From Candidatus Fraserbacteria bacterium (GTDB taxonomy: Bacteria > Bipolaricaulota > Bipolaricaulia > RBG-16-55-9 > DRXL01), in NCBI GenBank assembly GCA_947085185.1, contig CAMTVK010000007.1, positions 32,001 to 96,000 on the forward strand: 64,000 nt of DNA, in the 5' to 3' direction. This document shows, in pieces, positions 51,801 through 59,091 of the stretch. Under the pieces are notes generated by a model. It ran no database searches. It had not been told where the DNA came from and saw only the letters and a program-made list of their open reading frames with translations. The translations under genes and the position numbers were made by a program. How positions within the stretch are numbered: the first letter of the stretch is position 1; each line of letters begins with the position of its first letter.

Positions 51801-52211
51801 GTGCTCCCCATGATGTCCCCAGACCCGTCCATGCGCCCCGATGCCGACATCGAAGCCATCGGCATGGAGATTGCCATGAACTACGAACGCTCTCAAGGAC
51901 GCGAGCCCGAAGACGTCTCGCTGCAGAACCTCGGCTATGATATTCGCTCTTACGCGCCCGATGGCACACTTCGCTCTATTGAGGTCAAAGCCCGTGCGAC
52001 CACCGGTGCGATCGTGCTCACGCCCAACGAATGGGTCATGGCACAGCGTCTGGGCGACGAATACTGGCTCTACATCGTGGAGAACGCCGCCACAAAGCCC
52101 AGGCTCCATCGGATCCAGAACCCGGCGGCTCGGCTCCAGCCCGAAATGGAAGTGTCCATCGTCCGCTACATCATTACAGACTGGCAGAAGGGAGTGTCCT
52201 ATGAAGCCTGA
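48897..52211 (+). CDS. SNF2-family helicase with C-terminal DUF3883 nuclease-like domain
   Basis: PLPHQ, LADDPGAGKT, DEAH, TATPH, EAGGEGINLQ, QRMGRIHRYGQ; GYDIRS..IEVKA; GTG start after AAGGAG and TGTTATAAT. Confidence 0.92.
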   Translation: MTQKLQANHIIESDFWPEPVRVLTIEPLGDRMKVEAVGTRTQRFYSRLLSQTDLALVRIVSDTQRDFLGDAEGFFLAIEAHRIRFAHQFDPLLAVNISQVDPLPHQIEAVYHYILRTPQIRFLLADDPGAGKTIMTGLVLKELKYRGLVQRTLIVVPGHLKDQWLREMKERFGESFTVIDRSTIHATWGRNVWQEHPQVITSMDFAKQEDVLATLAEVHWDLAVADEAHKMAAYRYGDKTSKTERYRLGELLSRTSQFLLFLTATPHRGDPENFRLFLELLEPGMFANTELLLESVQNRENPLFLRRLKEDLRDFENRPLFPPRRVFTKPYRLSDTEKRLYNAVTEYVETSYNKALATGKRNVAFALLILQRRMASSVRAVRRSLERRKERLEKLLKLGQWLAQGERIDEDELEDAPESERLRQEEELIERLTSAETREELQEEIRTLEELVRLANEAERQEVETKLTELRRVMEDEKIRATGEKLLIFTESRETLEYLCEKLSAWGYSVVPLHGGMNLDARIRAEHEFREKAQVMVSTEAGGEGINLQFCALMVNYDIPWNPNRLEQRMGRIHRYGQHKEVHIYNLVASDTREGRVLHELFQKLQEIQAAMGSDRVFDVIGELVPERSLKDLIVEAIAHRRTLDEIVAEIAAIPNEEALRKVRAAALEALATRHIELHRILGEDRKAREQRLVPEYIERFFERSCAFLNIRLERRRDGFWRVPQVPLEVRHVSREFKHCFGEPFREYNKLAFDKEKARRGDAVFVAPGHPLLEAILERVLAQGIPDARRGAIFADPDGKLDGWLWFLEGELRDGTNQIAGRRLFVLLQPRQGGLLRLVNSSILWDLKPSIPSQSIEPCPPEGEIIAYAAEHVLEAYRQELLEERQRQNEIKRKYGLRSLEQMILESDAKLIEYETRRAKGEPIPDAEIHNEQRRNEELRARKHTLEEEIRRSSSLLPSVPRVLGVARVLPMMSPDPSMRPDADIEAIGMEIAMNYERSQGREPEDVSLQNLGYDIRSYAPDGTLRSIEVKARATTGAIVLTPNEWVMAQRLGDEYWLYIVENAATKPRLHRIQNPAARLQPEMEVSIVRYIITDWQKGVSYEA

Positions 52212-52281
52212 GCGCTATACGCTTACGAAGCACGGCAACTGTTATCAGTGCCGCAAGAGTAAAATCCATGCGGGAACGTGA
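52201..52281 (+). pseudogene. 26-aa gene remnant or coupling peptide
   Basis: RBS AAGGGAG; MKPERYTLTKHGNCYQCRKSKIHAGT overlaps both neighbours. Confidence 0.35.
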
Positions 52282-52687
52282 AGTCATCAGGACCGTCGCC
52301 GAGCGATTGCGCGCGGAAGGACTGATGGACCTGAAGGTGCGCTACGGGAGCGAACCCGGCCCGGACATCGAGGGGACGCTGCCCCGCTCGCGGCGGCACC
52401 TGTTCGTCGAGGCGAAAGGGGAACGGGCTCGCACCTCGCCGCGCATCACCGTGGGAGAGGCGCTCCTCCAGATTCTCTCCCGCTGGGACAGCGATGTGGT
52501 CTGCGCTCTTGCGGTGCCCTATAACAAGGAATTCGAGGAGGTCCTTCGAACCATCCTGCCCGGCCTGCGCTGCCTGGAACTGCATGTCCTGTTGGCGAAA
52601 GATGGTGAAGTGTGGTATCTTAGCCCTAACAAGGCCGGTTTTCTGGTGGAAAAGCCCCTGTCCATCATTGAGGTGCTCGAAAGATGA
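52268..52687 (+). CDS. small PD-(D/E)XK nuclease-fold protein
   Basis: E..V, GPDIEG, FVEAKG, LLQI. Confidence 0.65.
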   Translation: MREREVIRTVAERLRAEGLMDLKVRYGSEPGPDIEGTLPRSRRHLFVEAKGERARTSPRITVGEALLQILSRWDSDVVCALAVPYNKEFEEVLRTILPGLRCLELHVLLAKDGEVWYLSPNKAGFLVEKPLSIIEVLER

Positions 52688-54288
52688 GCAAAGCACAAAA
52701 AGCTATGACCCGCGTGATCGAAACCGACTTTCCCCTGCGCGCGGTCTCCGAGGAGTCCGTGCGCGAGAAGAACATCCGCCACGGCCACATCTCCACCCTG
52801 CACATCTGGTGGGCGCGCCGACCGCTGGCGGCCTCGCGGGCCACCGCATTGGCCGCACTGTTGCCCGATGACCCCAAGCGGCGCAACCAGTTCCTTGAAC
52901 TCGTCCGAGGCATCGCCCCGTGGGAGGCCGTCTCCGCCAACAGGGCCGATTCAACCCACCTGCTGGAAAATGCCCGCGCCCTCATCCGCGAGGCCTTTGA
53001 CGGCCGCGCCCCGCGGGTGCTCGACCCCTTCGCCGGCGGCGGGAGCATCCCCCTGGAGGCGCTGCGCCTGGGCTGCGAGACCTATGCGCTGGACTATAAC
53101 CCGGTGGCCGTGCTGCTCAACAAGTGCGTGCTGGAATACCCGCAAAAGTTCGGCCAACCCGGTTCGGTGGCGCAGGTCCCTTTGCCGCCCTGTGCGAAGA
53201 AGGACGAGGCGGATCTTTTTGGAGCCCACAGGGATGTTCAGGAGAATCCGCCGGGGCGCAGCGGCGCTGCGCCCCTCCTGGTGGCCGTGCGCGCCTGGGG
53301 CGACTGGGTGCTGGAGGAAGCACGCAAGGAACTGGCGCGTTTCTACCCGCCGGACGCGGATGGTTCCGTGCCCGTTGGTTATATCTGGGCGCGCACGCTG
53401 CCCTGCCAGAACCCGGCCTGCGGCGCCGAAATCCCCCTCATGCGCCAGACCTGGCTGGCCAGAAAGGACAACAAGAAGGTCGCCCTGAAGCTACTGCCGA
53501 ACCGCGCCGCCCGGCGGGTGGACGCGGCGATTGTGGAGGGCGCGGCCATTGACTTCGACCCGGAGGAGGGCACGACGGCCCGCGCCCACGTGCGCTGCCC
53601 GGCCTGCGGCGGGACGATAGACGATAAGACCACGCGCCGGCTCTTCCGCGAGGGCAAGGCCGGACAGCGCCTGATGGCGGTGGTGCTGCACAGGCCCGGC
53701 CGCAGCGGCAAGACCTACCGCCTGGCCACCGAGGCGGACCTGGTGGCCTACCGCGCCGCCGAGCAGGCGCTCGTAGGGGCAAGGCAGCGCCTTGCCCAGG
53801 ACTGGGGCCTGGACCCCGTGCCGGATGAGCCAACGCCTCTGGGTGGTGGCCCCGGCGCTGAAAGAGCCTTCTCTGTGCACAAGTATGGCCTGACCCGCTG
53901 GGGCGACCTCTTCAACCCCCGGCAGAAACTGGCGCTCATCACCTTTGCCGAGAAGGTGCGCCGCGCCCACGCCGAGATGCTCGCCCAGGGCGCCGACCCG
54001 GAATTCGCCCGGGCAGTGACGACTTATTTGGCGCTGGGGGTGGACATGATGGCGGCTTTCTGCAACTCTTTGGCGCGTTGGGAGAATACGTCGGAAGCGA
54101 TAAAACAGCTATTCTCTCGGCAGGCGTTGCCCATGCTTTGGGATTACATAGAACTAAATCCATTCAGTGGCTCAACTGGAAGTTGGGAGGCCGGTTGGGA
54201 GTACTATTTGGAGACGCTCGCCCACCTCATCCAAATCCCGCCGGTATCGGCGGGCGGGTGCGAGGCAGGCACGGAGGGTTTGCCATGA
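52684..54288 (+). CDS. DUF1156 adenine DNA methyltransferase, N-terminal half
   Basis: LHIWWARRPLA, DPFAGGGSIPLEA (motif I), Zn ribbon CxxxxC/CPAC, LFNPRQ. Confidence 0.9.
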   Translation: MSKAQKAMTRVIETDFPLRAVSEESVREKNIRHGHISTLHIWWARRPLAASRATALAALLPDDPKRRNQFLELVRGIAPWEAVSANRADSTHLLENARALIREAFDGRAPRVLDPFAGGGSIPLEALRLGCETYALDYNPVAVLLNKCVLEYPQKFGQPGSVAQVPLPPCAKKDEADLFGAHRDVQENPPGRSGAAPLLVAVRAWGDWVLEEARKELARFYPPDADGSVPVGYIWARTLPCQNPACGAEIPLMRQTWLARKDNKKVALKLLPNRAARRVDAAIVEGAAIDFDPEEGTTARAHVRCPACGGTIDDKTTRRLFREGKAGQRLMAVVLHRPGRSGKTYRLATEADLVAYRAAEQALVGARQRLAQDWGLDPVPDEPTPLGGGPGAERAFSVHKYGLTRWGDLFNPRQKLALITFAEKVRRAHAEMLAQGADPEFARAVTTYLALGVDMMAAFCNSLARWENTSEAIKQLFSRQALPMLWDYIELNPFSGSTGSWEAGWEYYLETLAHLIQIPPVSAGGCEAGTEGLP

Positions 54289-54593
54289 CCAAGCGCGTAC
54301 CAAAGCGGTTGGAGGAAATCCTGGAGACGCTCCGCCAACACAAGACGGAACTGGCGGAGCGCTACGGGGTGCGGGAGATGGCCGTCTTCGGCTCCTATGC
54401 CCGCGGCGAGGCCGGGCCCGAGAGCGACCTGGACATTCTCGTGGAGTTCACCGACCCGCCGGGGCTCATTGGCTTCATCCGGCTGGAGAACGAGCTCAGC
54501 GAACTCCTGGGCGTGCGGGTAGAACTGGTAACACGACAGGCGCTCAAGCGCCATATCGGCGAGCGAATTTTAGACGAGGCGGTGCCAGCATGA
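54285..54593 (+). CDS. MNT (minimal nucleotidyltransferase) antitoxin
   Basis: VFGSYARGE..SDLDILVEF. Confidence 0.92.
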   Translation: MTKRVPKRLEEILETLRQHKTELAERYGVREMAVFGSYARGEAGPESDLDILVEFTDPPGLIGFIRLENELSELLGVRVELVTRQALKRHIGERILDEAVPA

Positions 54594-54934
54594 AGCGTGC
54601 GCTGAGGGATTATCTGGAAGATATGCTTTGCTCCGCTCGGGAAGCGCTGGAGTTCACCGAAGGGATGGACTTTGCCATGTTCTGCCATGACCGGAAGACG
54701 TTCAATGCGGTGTTGCGTTCTTTGGAAGTGCTCGGCGAAGCGGCAAAGAAAATCCCGAAGCCGGTGCGCGCCAAATACCCCGACCTGCCCTGGCAGGAAA
54801 TGGCGGGGATGCGCGATAAACTCATCCATGAGTATCACGGCGTGGATGAGCGAATCGTCTGGAAAACGGTTCGCGAGGACATTCCACCGTTGATACCTCT
54901 CTTGGAAAGAATCCTTCGGGAGGAGAGCCAATGA
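54590..54934 (+). CDS. HEPN/DUF86 RNase toxin
   Basis: YLEDML, LEVLGEA, PWQEMAGMRDKLIHEY (Rx4HxY). Confidence 0.92.
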   Translation: MKRALRDYLEDMLCSAREALEFTEGMDFAMFCHDRKTFNAVLRSLEVLGEAAKKIPKPVRAKYPDLPWQEMAGMRDKLIHEYHGVDERIVWKTVREDIPPLIPLLERILREESQ

Positions 54935-55024
54935 GCACTGGAAGTAGATTTGCTCACCCCCGGCTCATTTCGCCGCAAACCTCGCTTATGGGACCAGGTG
55001 AAGGAGGATTTGACCTATGTCTAA
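54931..55024 (+). pseudogene. second MNT remnant
   Basis: ATG at 54931, then out-of-frame LEVDLLTPGSFRRKPRLWDQVKEDLTYV* (54938-55024), resembling an MNT C-terminus. Confidence 0.6.
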
Positions 55025-55202
55025 GCGCGATTGGACGTTCTTCCTTCAGGATATGCTGGAAAGCGTACAAGTGGGCTTGCGAAACCGTCTTGCCCATGCT
55101 TCCTTCGCTATCGACGACGAAATCGTCTGGGATATCGTGACTAACGAACTGCCCCTACTGAAAGAAAGATTGGAACGTATTCTCCGCGAGGTGCATGGAT
55201 GA
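55017..55202 (+). pseudogene. second HEPN/DUF86, internally deleted
   Basis: MSKRDWTFFLQDMLES joined almost directly to GLRNRLAH..IDDEIVWDIV; 61 aa versus 114 aa for the neighbouring intact copy. Confidence 0.75.
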
Positions 55203-56473
55203 AGACCCTGCTGCTGCCACAGGTTACCCACGGCACCGCCACCGACCTGCCCTGGCCCGATAACTTCTTCGACGCCGTGCTCACCGACCCGCCCTACTAC
55301 GATAACGTCCCCTACGCCGACCTTTCCGACTTTTTCTACGTCTGGCTCAAGCGCACCGTGGGCGACCTGTACCCCGACCTCTTCGCTACCCCGCTCACGC
55401 CGAAATCACAAGAGATGGTCGCCGACGCCAGCAAGGCGGGCGGTATGGATCAGGCCAAGCGCCGCTTTGAGGAGATGCTCACCCAGTCCTTCCGCGAGAT
55501 CCACCGCGTGCTCAAGCCCGACGGGATCGCCGTGATCGTCTTTGCCCACAAGACGACCGCGGCCTGGGAGACGGTCATTCAAGCGCTCTTGGAGGCCGGC
55601 CTCTACATGACCGCCTCCTGGCCCATCCACACCGAGATGCAGGCGCGCTTGCGGGCGCAGGAGTCGGCGGCGCTGGCTTCTTCCATCTACATGGTCTGCC
55701 GCAAGCGCACTGTAGGGGCGGACGGCCGTCCGCCCATCGGCGAATTTGCCAAAGTGCGGCGGGAGATCGAAGAGCGGGTGCAGCGCAAACTCGCCCAGTT
55801 CTGGGACGAGGGCATCCGCGGGGCGGACTTCTTCATGAGCGCCATAGGCCCGGCGGTGGAAGCCTTCGGCCGCTACGCCCGCGTGGAAAAACTCTCCGGC
55901 GAGCCGGTCACGGTGACAGAACTGTTGGAGTACGTGCGCAAGGTGGTAAGCGAGTTTGCCTTGAGGCGCATCTTGAAAGAGGCGTACCGGGGCGGGGTGG
56001 ATGCGCTCACGCAGTTGTATCTGCTGTGGCGCTGGACGTATAATCACGCGCGGGTGCCCTTTGATGAAGCCCGCAAACTCGCGGCCGGCGTCGGCGTGGA
56101 GCTCTCCCAACAGTGGGGTCCTGGAGGAATCGTGAGCAAACAGAAAGAGTACATCGTGATGCGCACCCCCCAAGACCGCGCCCAAGACGAGCGCTTCGCC
56201 CAGCACACGGAATTCCGCACCATGATCGATGCGCTCCATCGGGCTGTGGCCCTGTGGGAACGCAATCGGCAACGCGAGCTCCAGGAGCACCTAGCGCAAA
56301 CCTATGGGACCAATGAGGCGTTCTGGCAAGTGGCGCAAGCGATCAGCGAGGTGCTCCCCGACGGCGATAAAGAAAAACAAACGCTTCAGGGGCTTCTCTA
56401 TAGGCACAGGTCCTATACCATACCCACCCCTGGCGAAACTCCACTCCCCTTTGAGAAAGGAGAGGCACCATGA
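55199..56473 (+). CDS. DUF1156-type adenine DNA methyltransferase, C-terminal half
   Basis: TDPPYYDNVPYADLSDFFYVW (motif IV), FAHK..AWET, WPIHTE, ALASSI. Confidence 0.9.
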   Translation: MKTLLLPQVTHGTATDLPWPDNFFDAVLTDPPYYDNVPYADLSDFFYVWLKRTVGDLYPDLFATPLTPKSQEMVADASKAGGMDQAKRRFEEMLTQSFREIHRVLKPDGIAVIVFAHKTTAAWETVIQALLEAGLYMTASWPIHTEMQARLRAQESAALASSIYMVCRKRTVGADGRPPIGEFAKVRREIEERVQRKLAQFWDEGIRGADFFMSAIGPAVEAFGRYARVEKLSGEPVTVTELLEYVRKVVSEFALRRILKEAYRGGVDALTQLYLLWRWTYNHARVPFDEARKLAAGVGVELSQQWGPGGIVSKQKEYIVMRTPQDRAQDERFAQHTEFRTMIDALHRAVALWERNRQRELQEHLAQTYGTNEAFWQVAQAISEVLPDGDKEKQTLQGLLYRHRSYTIPTPGETPLPFEKGEAP

Positions 56474-59091
56474 AGCCATGGTATCACACGATCACCCCCC
56501 ATCGGGACATCCGCGAGGGAAAGTTTGACGAATCGGTCTTCGCCGCCGATCTCTCGGACGTCATGGCCGGTCGAGCATCGGTGGAGTATCGCGATCCGGT
56601 CACGTTCTTTCGCAAGACCTACCCGACGCACGGCTTGAGGAACTTGCTTGCCGCGGTGCTGAAGCGGCTCTCCGGCTCAGGCCACGGGGAGAGCGTCATC
56701 CAAATCCAGACCCCCTTCGGCGGTGGCAAGACCCACAGCTTGATCGCGCTCTATCACGTGTTCAAGCACGCCCAAGAGCTTGAGGGTGTGGAGACCGTGG
56801 CGGAGATCCTCAAGGAAGCCCATACAGAAACAATCCCGCAGACACGGGTGGTGAGCTTTGTCGGGACCGCCCTTGATGCGCTTGGGGGCCGGACGCCCTG
56901 GGGCGAACTGGCGCATCAGTTGGAAGAGTACGAACAGCTCAAGGAGCATGATCGGCGGCGCCGCACCCCAGGGAAGGATCTCTTGCACAAGCTCTTGCAC
57001 GGCGAGCCAACCCTGATCCTCATGGATGAGCTCGCTGAATATGCCGTGAAAGCCAAGGACTTCCGCGACCAGGTGGTGGCGTTCATGCAGGAGCTCACCG
57101 AGACCGTGAAGGTGCTGCCCCGCTGCGCACTGGTGGTGACGCTGCCCTCCAGTGCCCCCTACGGTGAAGAAGGCGAACGTGCGCTCCACGAACTGCAGCA
57201 GATCTTCAAGCGCGTGGAGACCATCAAAACCCCGGTGGAAGGGGAGGAGATCTACGAAGTCATCCGCAGGCGACTCTTTGAAGATCACGGGGATGAAAGA
57301 GAGATCAGGCGCGTCGCCGAAGCCTACTGGGAGCTGTACCAACGCTTAGGGGACGATGTGCCCCGCGAGGTGCGCGAGCTGGCATATCGGGAACGGATGC
57401 GCAAGGCCTATCCGTTTCATCCCGAACTGATCGACGTGCTGTTTGAGCGCTGGAGCACCTTTCCCGATTTTCAGCGCACGCGCGGCGTGTTGCGCCTGCT
57501 GGCCCAGATCGTGGCCGAGCTGTACCGGCAGCAGCATCCCGCGCCGCTCATCCAACCCTGCCACATCAACCTGACCGATCCGGCCATACGCGCCGAGTTC
57601 TTGCGACACATCGGCAACGAGTACCAGGGCGTGATCGCCTCGGACATCGGCGGCCCCAACGCCAAGGCTGAGAAGATCGATCGGGAGATGGGCTCGGAAT
57701 ACGCACGGTTCCGCATTGCCAGCGGGGTGGCACGAGCGATCTTCTTTGCTTCCTTCAGCGGCTCAGAGAAGAAAGGCGTCGGGATTCAGCGGCTGCGGCT
57801 TGCGGTACTCACCCCCGAAATACCCCCAGCGATCGTCAGCGATGCCCTGCGCCGCCTGGAAGATGAGCTATGGTATCTGCATACGGAAGGGGGGCTCTAT
57901 TCGTTCTCCAGCCAGCCCAATCTCAACCGGGTGATCATCGAACGAGAGGAAGCGATCAAACCGGAGCAGATAGAAGAAGAGATCGAGAGACGCCTGGAGC
58001 ACCTGGCGGGCAGGGACATAGAGGTACGGCTCTTCCCCCACGATACGCACGATGTGCCCGATACCAAAGAGCTGAAGCTTGCTGTCCTTCCGCTGGACTA
58101 TCCTCGCCAAGCCAGCCAAACGGAAGAATTCGCAAAGAACCTGCTCACCAAGTGTGGACAGACCTTCCGGGTCTATCGGAACACCTTGGTGCTGCTTGGT
58201 GCCGATGACAGAGAGCTCGCTTCCCTGCGCGAGAATGCCAAACGCTGGCTCGCGCTGCAGACTATTGCCGACGACAAGGAGCTGATGCGGCGGCTTTCGG
58301 ATGAGAACAAGAGATGGCTGGAGACCAAGCGCAAGGATGCCGAAGGCAAGACGGGGTTTCAGCTCCTCAGTGCCTTCAGGCATCTTGCGAAAGCCGGTGT
58401 GGAGAGCACAGGCAGCGTGGAGTGGCACGATCTGGGCATTCCCACAGCAGGAGAAAAGACATCCCTGGCGTCTCGGGTGCGTGAGTACCTGCACACCCAG
58501 GAGCTCTTGCTGGAGAAGCTGTCTCCAAGGCGTCTTGTAGAAAAAGCCTGGCCCCCCGAAGACCAAGAAACACCGATCGAAGAGATCATCGAGGCGTTTC
58601 GCAAGTATCCGAACCTCCCCATGATCAGTGGGGCCCATGCCGTTTTGGATGCCATCGTCCAGGGGGTGCAAGAGGGTATATGGGGCGTGCGGGTTGGCGA
58701 GAAGATATACTTCCGTGAGGCCGTTCCCCGCTCGGCACTGGAAGGGGACGCGGTCTTGGTGCGGGCGGGGCATATCCCCGTATCGCCGCCAGCACCGCAA
58801 GAAATCGAATCTTCTACGACCCTACAGCCAACACCCGCCCCGCCGCCCCCTGCACCTCGCCAAGGGATCCAAACCTACTCTTTGCGGGCCAAAGTGCCAT
58901 GGGACAAGCTCTCGGATTTTGTGCGCGGGGTCGTGACCCCCCTGCGGCAGGACGGCGCAGAGCTGGAGATTGAAGTCTCCCTCCAAGCCCACACCCAATC
59001 CCAGGGGATCAAGAATCAGACGCTCGAACAGAAAGTGCGCGAGACACTCAAGCAGATCGGCGCCGAACTCCTAGATGAGTCGCAAGGGTGA
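56470..59091 (+). CDS. DUF499 AAA+ ATPase
   Basis: FAADL, QTPFGGGKTH, LMDEL, YPFHPEL, FQRTRGVLR. Confidence 0.92.
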   Translation: MKPWYHTITPHRDIREGKFDESVFAADLSDVMAGRASVEYRDPVTFFRKTYPTHGLRNLLAAVLKRLSGSGHGESVIQIQTPFGGGKTHSLIALYHVFKHAQELEGVETVAEILKEAHTETIPQTRVVSFVGTALDALGGRTPWGELAHQLEEYEQLKEHDRRRRTPGKDLLHKLLHGEPTLILMDELAEYAVKAKDFRDQVVAFMQELTETVKVLPRCALVVTLPSSAPYGEEGERALHELQQIFKRVETIKTPVEGEEIYEVIRRRLFEDHGDEREIRRVAEAYWELYQRLGDDVPREVRELAYRERMRKAYPFHPELIDVLFERWSTFPDFQRTRGVLRLLAQIVAELYRQQHPAPLIQPCHINLTDPAIRAEFLRHIGNEYQGVIASDIGGPNAKAEKIDREMGSEYARFRIASGVARAIFFASFSGSEKKGVGIQRLRLAVLTPEIPPAIVSDALRRLEDELWYLHTEGGLYSFSSQPNLNRVIIEREEAIKPEQIEEEIERRLEHLAGRDIEVRLFPHDTHDVPDTKELKLAVLPLDYPRQASQTEEFAKNLLTKCGQTFRVYRNTLVLLGADDRELASLRENAKRWLALQTIADDKELMRRLSDENKRWLETKRKDAEGKTGFQLLSAFRHLAKAGVESTGSVEWHDLGIPTAGEKTSLASRVREYLHTQELLLEKLSPRRLVEKAWPPEDQETPIEEIIEAFRKYPNLPMISGAHAVLDAIVQGVQEGIWGVRVGEKIYFREAVPRSALEGDAVLVRAGHIPVSPPAPQEIESSTTLQPTPAPPPPAPRQGIQTYSLRAKVPWDKLSDFVRGVVTPLRQDGAELEIEVSLQAHTQSQGIKNQTLEQKVRETLKQIGAELLDESQG

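Follow-up and report, generated by a model that had tools for sequence, protein, structure and literature searches.

A probably functional two-chain HmaB methyltransferase with a cargo slot inside hmaB in an Hma operon of Candidatus Fraserbacteria

The Hma defence operon of a Candidatus Fraserbacteria bacterium carried its methyltransferase gene, hmaB, as two intact open reading frames (ORFs). The operon lies in a 64,000-nucleotide stretch of contig CAMTVK010000007.1, the whole of which is referred to below as the window, and the two ORFs (the N-half and the C-half) are separated by 910 bases holding an MNT (minimal nucleotidyltransferase) gene, a HepT gene and the remnants of a second pair. 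Based on sequence comparisons and structure models, this arrangement is a real and recurrent form of HmaB, probably functional as two chains, with a likely intragenic cargo slot. By its gene content the operon is an Hma system, i.e. a Type-1 DUF499-centred BREX-related system (PMC12839542; PMC11232893): the SNF2 helicase ending in a PD-(D/E)XK nuclease domain, the DUF1156 N6-methyltransferase and the downstream DUF499 ATPase are present, and the methyltransferase, usually one chain in Hma, is divided over two ORFs.

The two ORFs matched consecutive parts of one PADLOC HmaB profile (Table 1) and represented the only hmaB found in the genome (96.8% complete), where hmaA and hmaC were unbroken. 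The N-half comprises the DUF1156 helical domain, motif I, Rossmann strands 1-2, the entire target-recognition domain (TRD) insert and a new 14-aa tail, while the C-half comprises the motif III strand, motif IV (DPPY), the remaining core and the C-terminal helical region. The full DUF1156 N6-methyltransferase set (motif I, TRD insert after strand 2, and DPPY) is therefore spread over two ORFs. A preliminary description of this DNA had assigned motifs I and IV to two separate, open halves that keep their catalytic motifs, and this was confirmed together with its coordinates: DPFAGGG stands at N-half residue 114 (base 53023) and DPPY at C-half residue 30 (base 55286), with the C-half's own ATG 29 codons ahead of it. 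No conserved sequence was lost at the cut, where the new tail and a new head replace the fused linker.

Table 1. Features of the Hma operon in the window. L numbers denote loci of relatives.
Feature	Position	Strand	Description	Evidence or remark
hmaA	48861..52211	+	SNF2 helicase, C-terminal NOV_C/DUF3883 nuclease domain	Pfam SNF2, Helicase_C, NOV_C; PADLOC HmaA, E 1.8e-214
Small embedded gene	52268..52687	+	139 aa; likely PD-(D/E)XK/Mrr-like nuclease	Stop overlaps start of hmaB N-half
hmaB N-half	52684..54288	+	534 aa	PADLOC HmaB positions 5-550 of 973
MntA-type antitoxin	54285..54593	+	Minimal nucleotidyltransferase	PF01909, E 4.6e-19; GSX10DXD intact, GSYARGEAGPESDLD
HepT-type HEPN RNase	54590..54934	+		PF01934, E 7.4e-29; RX4HXY intact, RDKLIHEY
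Second MNT, 3' remnant	54935..55024	+	About 29 codons, without start	Aligns to 3' end of intact MNT in L050 and L121
Second HepT, remnant	55017..55202	+	61 aa	PF01934 positions 84-120; RNRLAHAS
hmaB C-half	55199..56473	+	424 aa	PADLOC HmaB positions 571-920
hmaC	56470..59091	+	DUF499 AAA+ ATPase	PF04465; PADLOC HmaC, E 6.7e-165

Every start/stop overlap previously reported for the operon exists (ATGA at 54285, 54590, 54931, 55199 and 56470; ATGTCTAA at 55017), as does a further ATGA at 52684, but the continuous translational coupling read from them is broken inside the remnant pair. The ATG at 54931 opens a 69-aa frame without Pfam match, out of frame with the MNT tail and ending at 55140, and the TAA at 55022 closes a frame lacking any start. 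Because the chain is interrupted at this frame, the remnant HepT and the C-half must start from their own Shine-Dalgarno (SD)-like sites (AAGGAGG and GAGGTG, respectively). The head of the C-half in the window (55199-55216) and those of several other split C-halves, such as MKTL, resembled the first residues of cargo MNT proteins, which raises the possibility that an MNT gene supplied the start of the C-half. At the other side of the gap, the GC content at third codon positions was 0.67 in the TRD end (54000-54288), below the 0.85 of the remaining N-half, a difference that a swapped specificity segment would be expected to show. Promoter and terminator counts in a scan equalled those in shuffled sequences (2 vs 2.0 and 9 vs 9.4, respectively), so the scan gives no evidence on either.

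The preliminary description had called for a survey of splits at the same site and of their cargo. Among 189 loci fetched, hmaB was fused in 120 and not fused in 40, the 29 others being uninformative (junction outside). Five of the non-fused loci were set aside (L029 and L045, frameshifts elsewhere; L089 and L161, C part in another context; L058, IS4) and four duplicate rows were removed before the split count; after removal of duplicates, 31 distinct split loci with varied cargo stood against 115 fused ones. As the survey is biased to near relatives, these numbers do not translate into a family-wide frequency of the split. The N-half end was visible in 23 of the 31 split loci, the others showing cargo and the C-half start. 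Named split records belonged to Planctomycetota, Chloroflexota, Atribacterota and Bipolaricaulota, and one was titled Thermotogaceae. At the protein level, 59 of the best 120 N-half matches ended at the cut, 55 were fused and 6 were other forms (fused forms over 935 aa fell outside the length window of this search), and 66 of the best 120 C-half matches began at most 40 aa from DPPY, three of which look truncated. An ATG 24-35 codons before DPPY was present in 24 of the 31 split loci compared to 11 of the 115 fused loci, and an SD-like run for the C-half in 25 of the split loci.

The halves were compared with full-length fused relatives, as had been proposed. At 128 columns conserved in at least 90% of these relatives the window N-half showed no deviation, and the C-half deviated at one of 121 conserved columns, the fused medians being 4 and 3, respectively; the split and fused sets deviated alike (p about 0.5). 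On the C-half tree the end branch of the window was of ordinary length (0.19; median 0.22). Two deletions have struck the intervening cargo, while the halves themselves are clean. Within a five-member clade in which every locus is split, C-half dN/dS (nonsynonymous to synonymous rate ratio) ranged from 0.03 to 0.14 over 10 pairs (dS 0.14-0.30), and in fused sister pairs from 0.04 to 0.30 (9 measurable of 10). By these sequence measures the C-halves of that clade are under purifying selection after splitting, and the relaxed selection that the preliminary description had named as a sign of simple pseudogenisation was not found there. Moreover, the HepT/C-half junction common to the window and L050 has only 71% DNA identity (181/254 bases), and therefore the split arrangement is old. 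Among 111 near relatives, 15 of the 23 TRD-end alleles occurred in split form and 12 in both forms, and one split tail was joined to 13 TRD-end alleles; judging from these combinations, specificity alleles keep shuffling in split form.

In the AlphaFold model of the fused relative L032 (predicted local distance difference test, pLDDT, 88.4; predicted template modelling score, pTM, 0.86), the cut site is a nine-residue coil between the last post-TRD helix (495-510) and the strand at 520-523, the DPPY strand coming after. On this model the cut falls within the catalytic Rossmann fold itself, in the loop that immediately precedes the motif III strand. Thus, of the earlier idea that an inter-domain linker serves as a tolerated cargo slot, the tolerated slot stands, being reused across phyla, and the inter-domain linker does not. 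The joint model of the two halves scored 0.93 compared to 0.01 for the best control, with about 300 contacts, at least 92% agreement in contacts between runs and a partner pLDDT of at least 80; the mark set for this score was reached by 116 of 157 solved complexes and by 2 of 215 mismatched pairs. The best-defined contacts were those of N-half residues 110-114 with C-half residues 23-29 and of N-half residues 134-136 with C-half residue 9, which places two N-half strands between two C-half strands of one sheet. The strand order of the methyltransferase fold is 3-2-1-4, and sandwiched N-half strands fit this order. The halves are thus predicted to interlock into one catalytic fold, with N-half strands 1-2 held between the motif III strand and the DPPY strand of the C-half, so that neither half would be an enzyme alone. 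The heterodimer suggested earlier is in this way backed by modelling. Solved relatives were not found by phmmer at E below 0.001, and Foldseek returned only weak generic methyltransferases (E 0.02 or above); hence no close solved relative was there for the model to remember.

Concerning the passenger genes, the first pair in the window shows, at the sequence level, the features of the HepT/MntA class I: a PF01909 gene with GSX10DXD upstream of a PF01934 gene with RX4HXY. Its MNT also matched the PADLOC single-gene candidate PDC-S09 (E 5e-30). The second pair is incomplete, as its MNT lacks the 5' two thirds and its HepT, aligned at the DNA level with L050 and L121, has lost about 162 nt (about 54 codons) through an internal deletion that keeps the frame; the Tyr is also lost, whereas the start, SD, stop and RX4H are kept. 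No DNA copy of the cargo was found in the genome outside the locus, so that an origin by copying from elsewhere in this genome was rejected, and the one other HepT-like gene, on contig C17, is unrelated.

Across the 31 split loci, 25 slots contained genes for MNT, HEPN or both, arranged in one or several pairs of class I (PF01934) or class II (PF05168) whose order and number changed; four of these slots held a lone MNT (L066, L094, L163 and L185), which could reflect toxin loss or a stand-alone function. Five further slots were occupied by arrays of antisense coiled-coil genes and one had no recognisable gene. The antisense arrays (L188:2615-4940, L170, L172, L176 and L182) are tandem arrays of 2-5 copies of genes encoding 120-180 aa, with a hydrophobic C-terminus and, in one of two tested, a weak CCDC90-like match. 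These loci had a TATAAT box 10 bases before the conserved GTG of the C-half (TTGTCA-17-TATAAT in L170 and L172), which suggests that their C-half gained its own promoter. In addition, MNT-HepT pairs were observed just downstream of fused hmaB genes (L004:2297-2919, L030:1657-2134 and L032:8474-9009).

The preliminary description had tied an abortive-infection RNase to the methylase as a guard, and this specific link was not supported by the survey. In a guard module of the PrrC/EcoprrI kind, the MNT-HEPN pair would be functionally coupled to the split methylase, detect when the methylase is inhibited or lost, and then release the HepT RNase as abortive infection. The frequency of MNT and/or HEPN genes in split slots speaks for such a module, MNT/HepT matches being found in the flanks of only 6 of the 115 fused loci (at a different search depth), as do the two motifs kept in the first pair of the window and the HEPN backup effectors proposed for BREX-related systems (PMC12839542). 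However, a HEPN gene was missing in 10 of the 31 slots (the four lone MNT, the five antisense arrays and the slot without recognisable gene), which argues against an obligate guard; the partner is not fixed, class I and class II pairs vary in order and number and alternate with unrelated antisense arrays, and pairs are truncated or deleted in several loci. MNT-HEPN pairs are, besides, generally expanded and mobile in thermophiles (PMC3710099). A guard is therefore considered unlikely. The simplest reading is that the cargo genes are passengers in a hard-to-delete and already transcribed site, with stabilisation or backup defence as possible side benefits; for the intact pair of the window, whose motifs are complete, an addiction or backup role is possible.

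The distribution of the split bears on how it arose. On a C-half tree of 111 rows (duplicates, 10 rows of unusual length and distant rows scoring under a cut-off excluded), split rows were scattered, requiring at least 14 changes, 11 of them forced by starred branches of the quick tree. A single clade was rejected by the approximately unbiased (AU) test (p-AU 1e-36), and with it a single inherited origin of the split on this tree. Because of recombination the C-half tree is a poor record of events, and because it is unrooted the direction of change cannot be read from it. A shared tail motif was carried by 19 of the 23 visible split N-half ends compared to 13 of the 115 fused linkers, kin among them not being independent. 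The split locus L066 (lone MNT) and the fused locus L119 were identical at 278 of 283 bases upstream of the gap and about 94% identical just after it, but only about 70% identical further out. Taken together, we infer from these sequences a few origins followed by recombination of the tail-cargo-head tract, with occasional re-fusion.

The same scatter and the same near-identity (98%) of L066 and L119 just upstream of the gap also speak for repeated knock-outs, in which hmaB would lose its function by insertion into the loop and the loci seen would be either recent pseudogenes or an OFF state reversible by recombination. A few split operons are broken elsewhere, which fits such a history, as does L058 (5755-6954), where an IS4-family transposase occupies the same hmaB loop; with no ATG for its C-half, L058 may represent simple inactivation. 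On the other hand, dedicated starts and SD runs, the low dN/dS within the all-split clade, the old shared junction, the TRD shuffling on split tails and the decay of cargo between clean halves are hard to reconcile with inactivation, and repeated knock-outs are regarded as quite unlikely.

Several observations nevertheless weigh against a working two-chain enzyme. The dN/dS values of the all-split clade bear on the split form only on the assumption that its ancestor was split, and for the branch leading to the window the comparison was limited to distant relatives (dS about 0.8-1.6). Four C-halves of that clade have only GTG/TTG starts, without SD. Broken genes were somewhat more frequent in split than in fused operons for hmaA (2/12 vs 2/61), hmaC (2/18 vs 2/83) and the C-half (2/30 vs 0/114), although these counts are rough and exclude two frameshifted fused-type loci, and the breaks cluster in L134 and L043. 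In Halomonas, HmaA gave defence on its own, with HmaB absent (PMC11232893), and an intact hmaA therefore does not prove that the methylase is needed. Finally, since fused proteins supplied 60 of the 70 alignment rows behind the complex model, its pass partly reports intramolecular contacts and shows compatibility, not binding.

Two technical explanations were also addressed. A scaffolding or assembly chimera, which the preliminary description had raised against itself, was rejected because one contig of run X1 (spanning 52892-54878) and one of run X2 (spanning 54405-55269) together bridge both junctions with 0 differences each; X1 and X2 may be the source sample and are thus not independent support. 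Rejoining of the halves to one chain by RNA splicing, DNA excision, ribosomal bypass or protein trans-splicing is highly improbable, since no Rfam match was obtained at E up to 1 in 52000-57000, the insert ends had no terminal direct or inverted repeats, Pfam detected no recombinase or intein domain in the insert or half ends (leaving no intron, intein or excisable element as a candidate), and no joint skipping just the insert was listed among the contigs of four runs, though contigs can drop rare forms; the fused alleles with a split-type tail, which favour rejoining, mean that DNA-level cargo loss happens over evolutionary time.

Under the two-chain reading, the two intact hmaB genes would likely yield a working two-chain adenine methyltransferase, whose halves one operon transcript and the start/stop overlaps would keep co-expressed. 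The gap would be a protected slot in which passengers, mostly MNT-HEPN pairs, come and go; loss of a passenger from it would rarely leave the methylase unharmed, and a toxin-antitoxin (TA) pair that is intact may in turn stabilise the operon. Cargo exchange, re-fusion or re-splitting would proceed by recombination between the conserved blocks flanking the gap. By analogy with the MANTIS system, the methylase would mark self DNA for HmaA/HmaC. A more far-reaching version, put forward tentatively and considered doubtful as a whole, is that in this branch of Hma systems hmaB acts as a reversible gene-capture site: the gap would be a small cassette array gaining, reordering and shedding TA and other genes through flank recombination, about half of the nearest relatives would have HmaB as two interlocking chains, the cargo wired into the operon transcript would be a swappable second line of defence, and the specificity domain would be shuffled independently next door.

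Among the other genes of the operon, the start codon of hmaA is uncertain (open frame from 48573). The 139-aa gene between hmaA and hmaB had no Pfam and no PADLOC match. It encodes a PD...EAK-like motif and had ESM Atlas look-alikes at 0.94, one cluster of which showed Mrr_cat in 22% of members; it is likely an extra embedded nuclease, as a lead only. Elsewhere in hmaB, a second insertion site about 47 residues into the C-half, just after DPPY, interrupted the match in five loci (L050, L051, L057, L061 and L088). Related proteins (P0033, P0049 and P0112) contained DUF559 or LAGLIDADG domains, suggesting inteins or in-frame endonucleases. Two split-type N-halves (P0183 and P0216) had a class II HEPN match (PF05168), apparently in an N-terminal extension.

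If the two-chain reading is true, a core defence enzyme cut inside its catalytic fold can work as two chains and the cut is a landing site for genes, so that the hotspots already described between hma genes would have a counterpart within one of them. Many database entries for short DUF1156 or 'hypothetical' methylases would then represent subunits, not fragments, and these systems may be scored as broken in error. The two-chain idea can be tested directly on alleles that occur naturally in split and fused form and share a specificity region, such as those of L066 and L119, and the engineering of targeted methylation could make use of an adenine methyltransferase of a thermophile that is split by nature.

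In the literature searched, with subscription papers outside its scope, no description of a split HmaB with genes between the halves was found. The described Hma system has the same gene order, and all three of its PADLOC profiles matched the window, but HmaB is one polypeptide there and two here (PMC12839542, in whose main text the word 'split' is absent). Insertions are reported in about 66.5% of hma operons (PMC11232893). The Hma-embedded genes HEC-01 to HEC-09 are likewise accessory defence or toxin genes in the hma operon and include the HEPN protein HEC-08 (bioRxiv 10.1101/2024.01.29.577857); these insertions are described between hma genes, whereas the cargo of the window lies inside hmaB and divides it, and the available text of that preprint contained none of the terms split, disrupt and hmaB. 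PrrC is described as an embedded guard (PMC12707154). Type VII TA systems of HepT/MntA class I show the same PF01909-PF01934 order with GSX10DXD and RX4HXY (PMC7641770); unlike them, the window pair sits, as read from its coordinates, inside another gene without intergenic space of its own. The MtsC protein of MANTIS, a Type-2 BREX-related system, is also a group-alpha methyltransferase with FAGGG, a central TRD and DPPY, and requires the DUF499 ATPase to methylate (bioRxiv 10.64898/2026.09.23.753747), but it is described as a single-chain monomer, part of a four-gene system that includes a PLD (phospholipase D) nuclease, whereas HmaB of the window consists of two ORFs. A further likeness in construction, predicted only, is to M.AquI and M.EcoHK31I, in which the catalytic motifs are shared by two polypeptides forming an active enzyme (PMC3404938). 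Those are C5-cytosine enzymes, while the window enzyme is of the group-alpha adenine type and is cut before motif III; in addition, its halves hold whole genes between them, and split and fused states coexist in the HmaB family.

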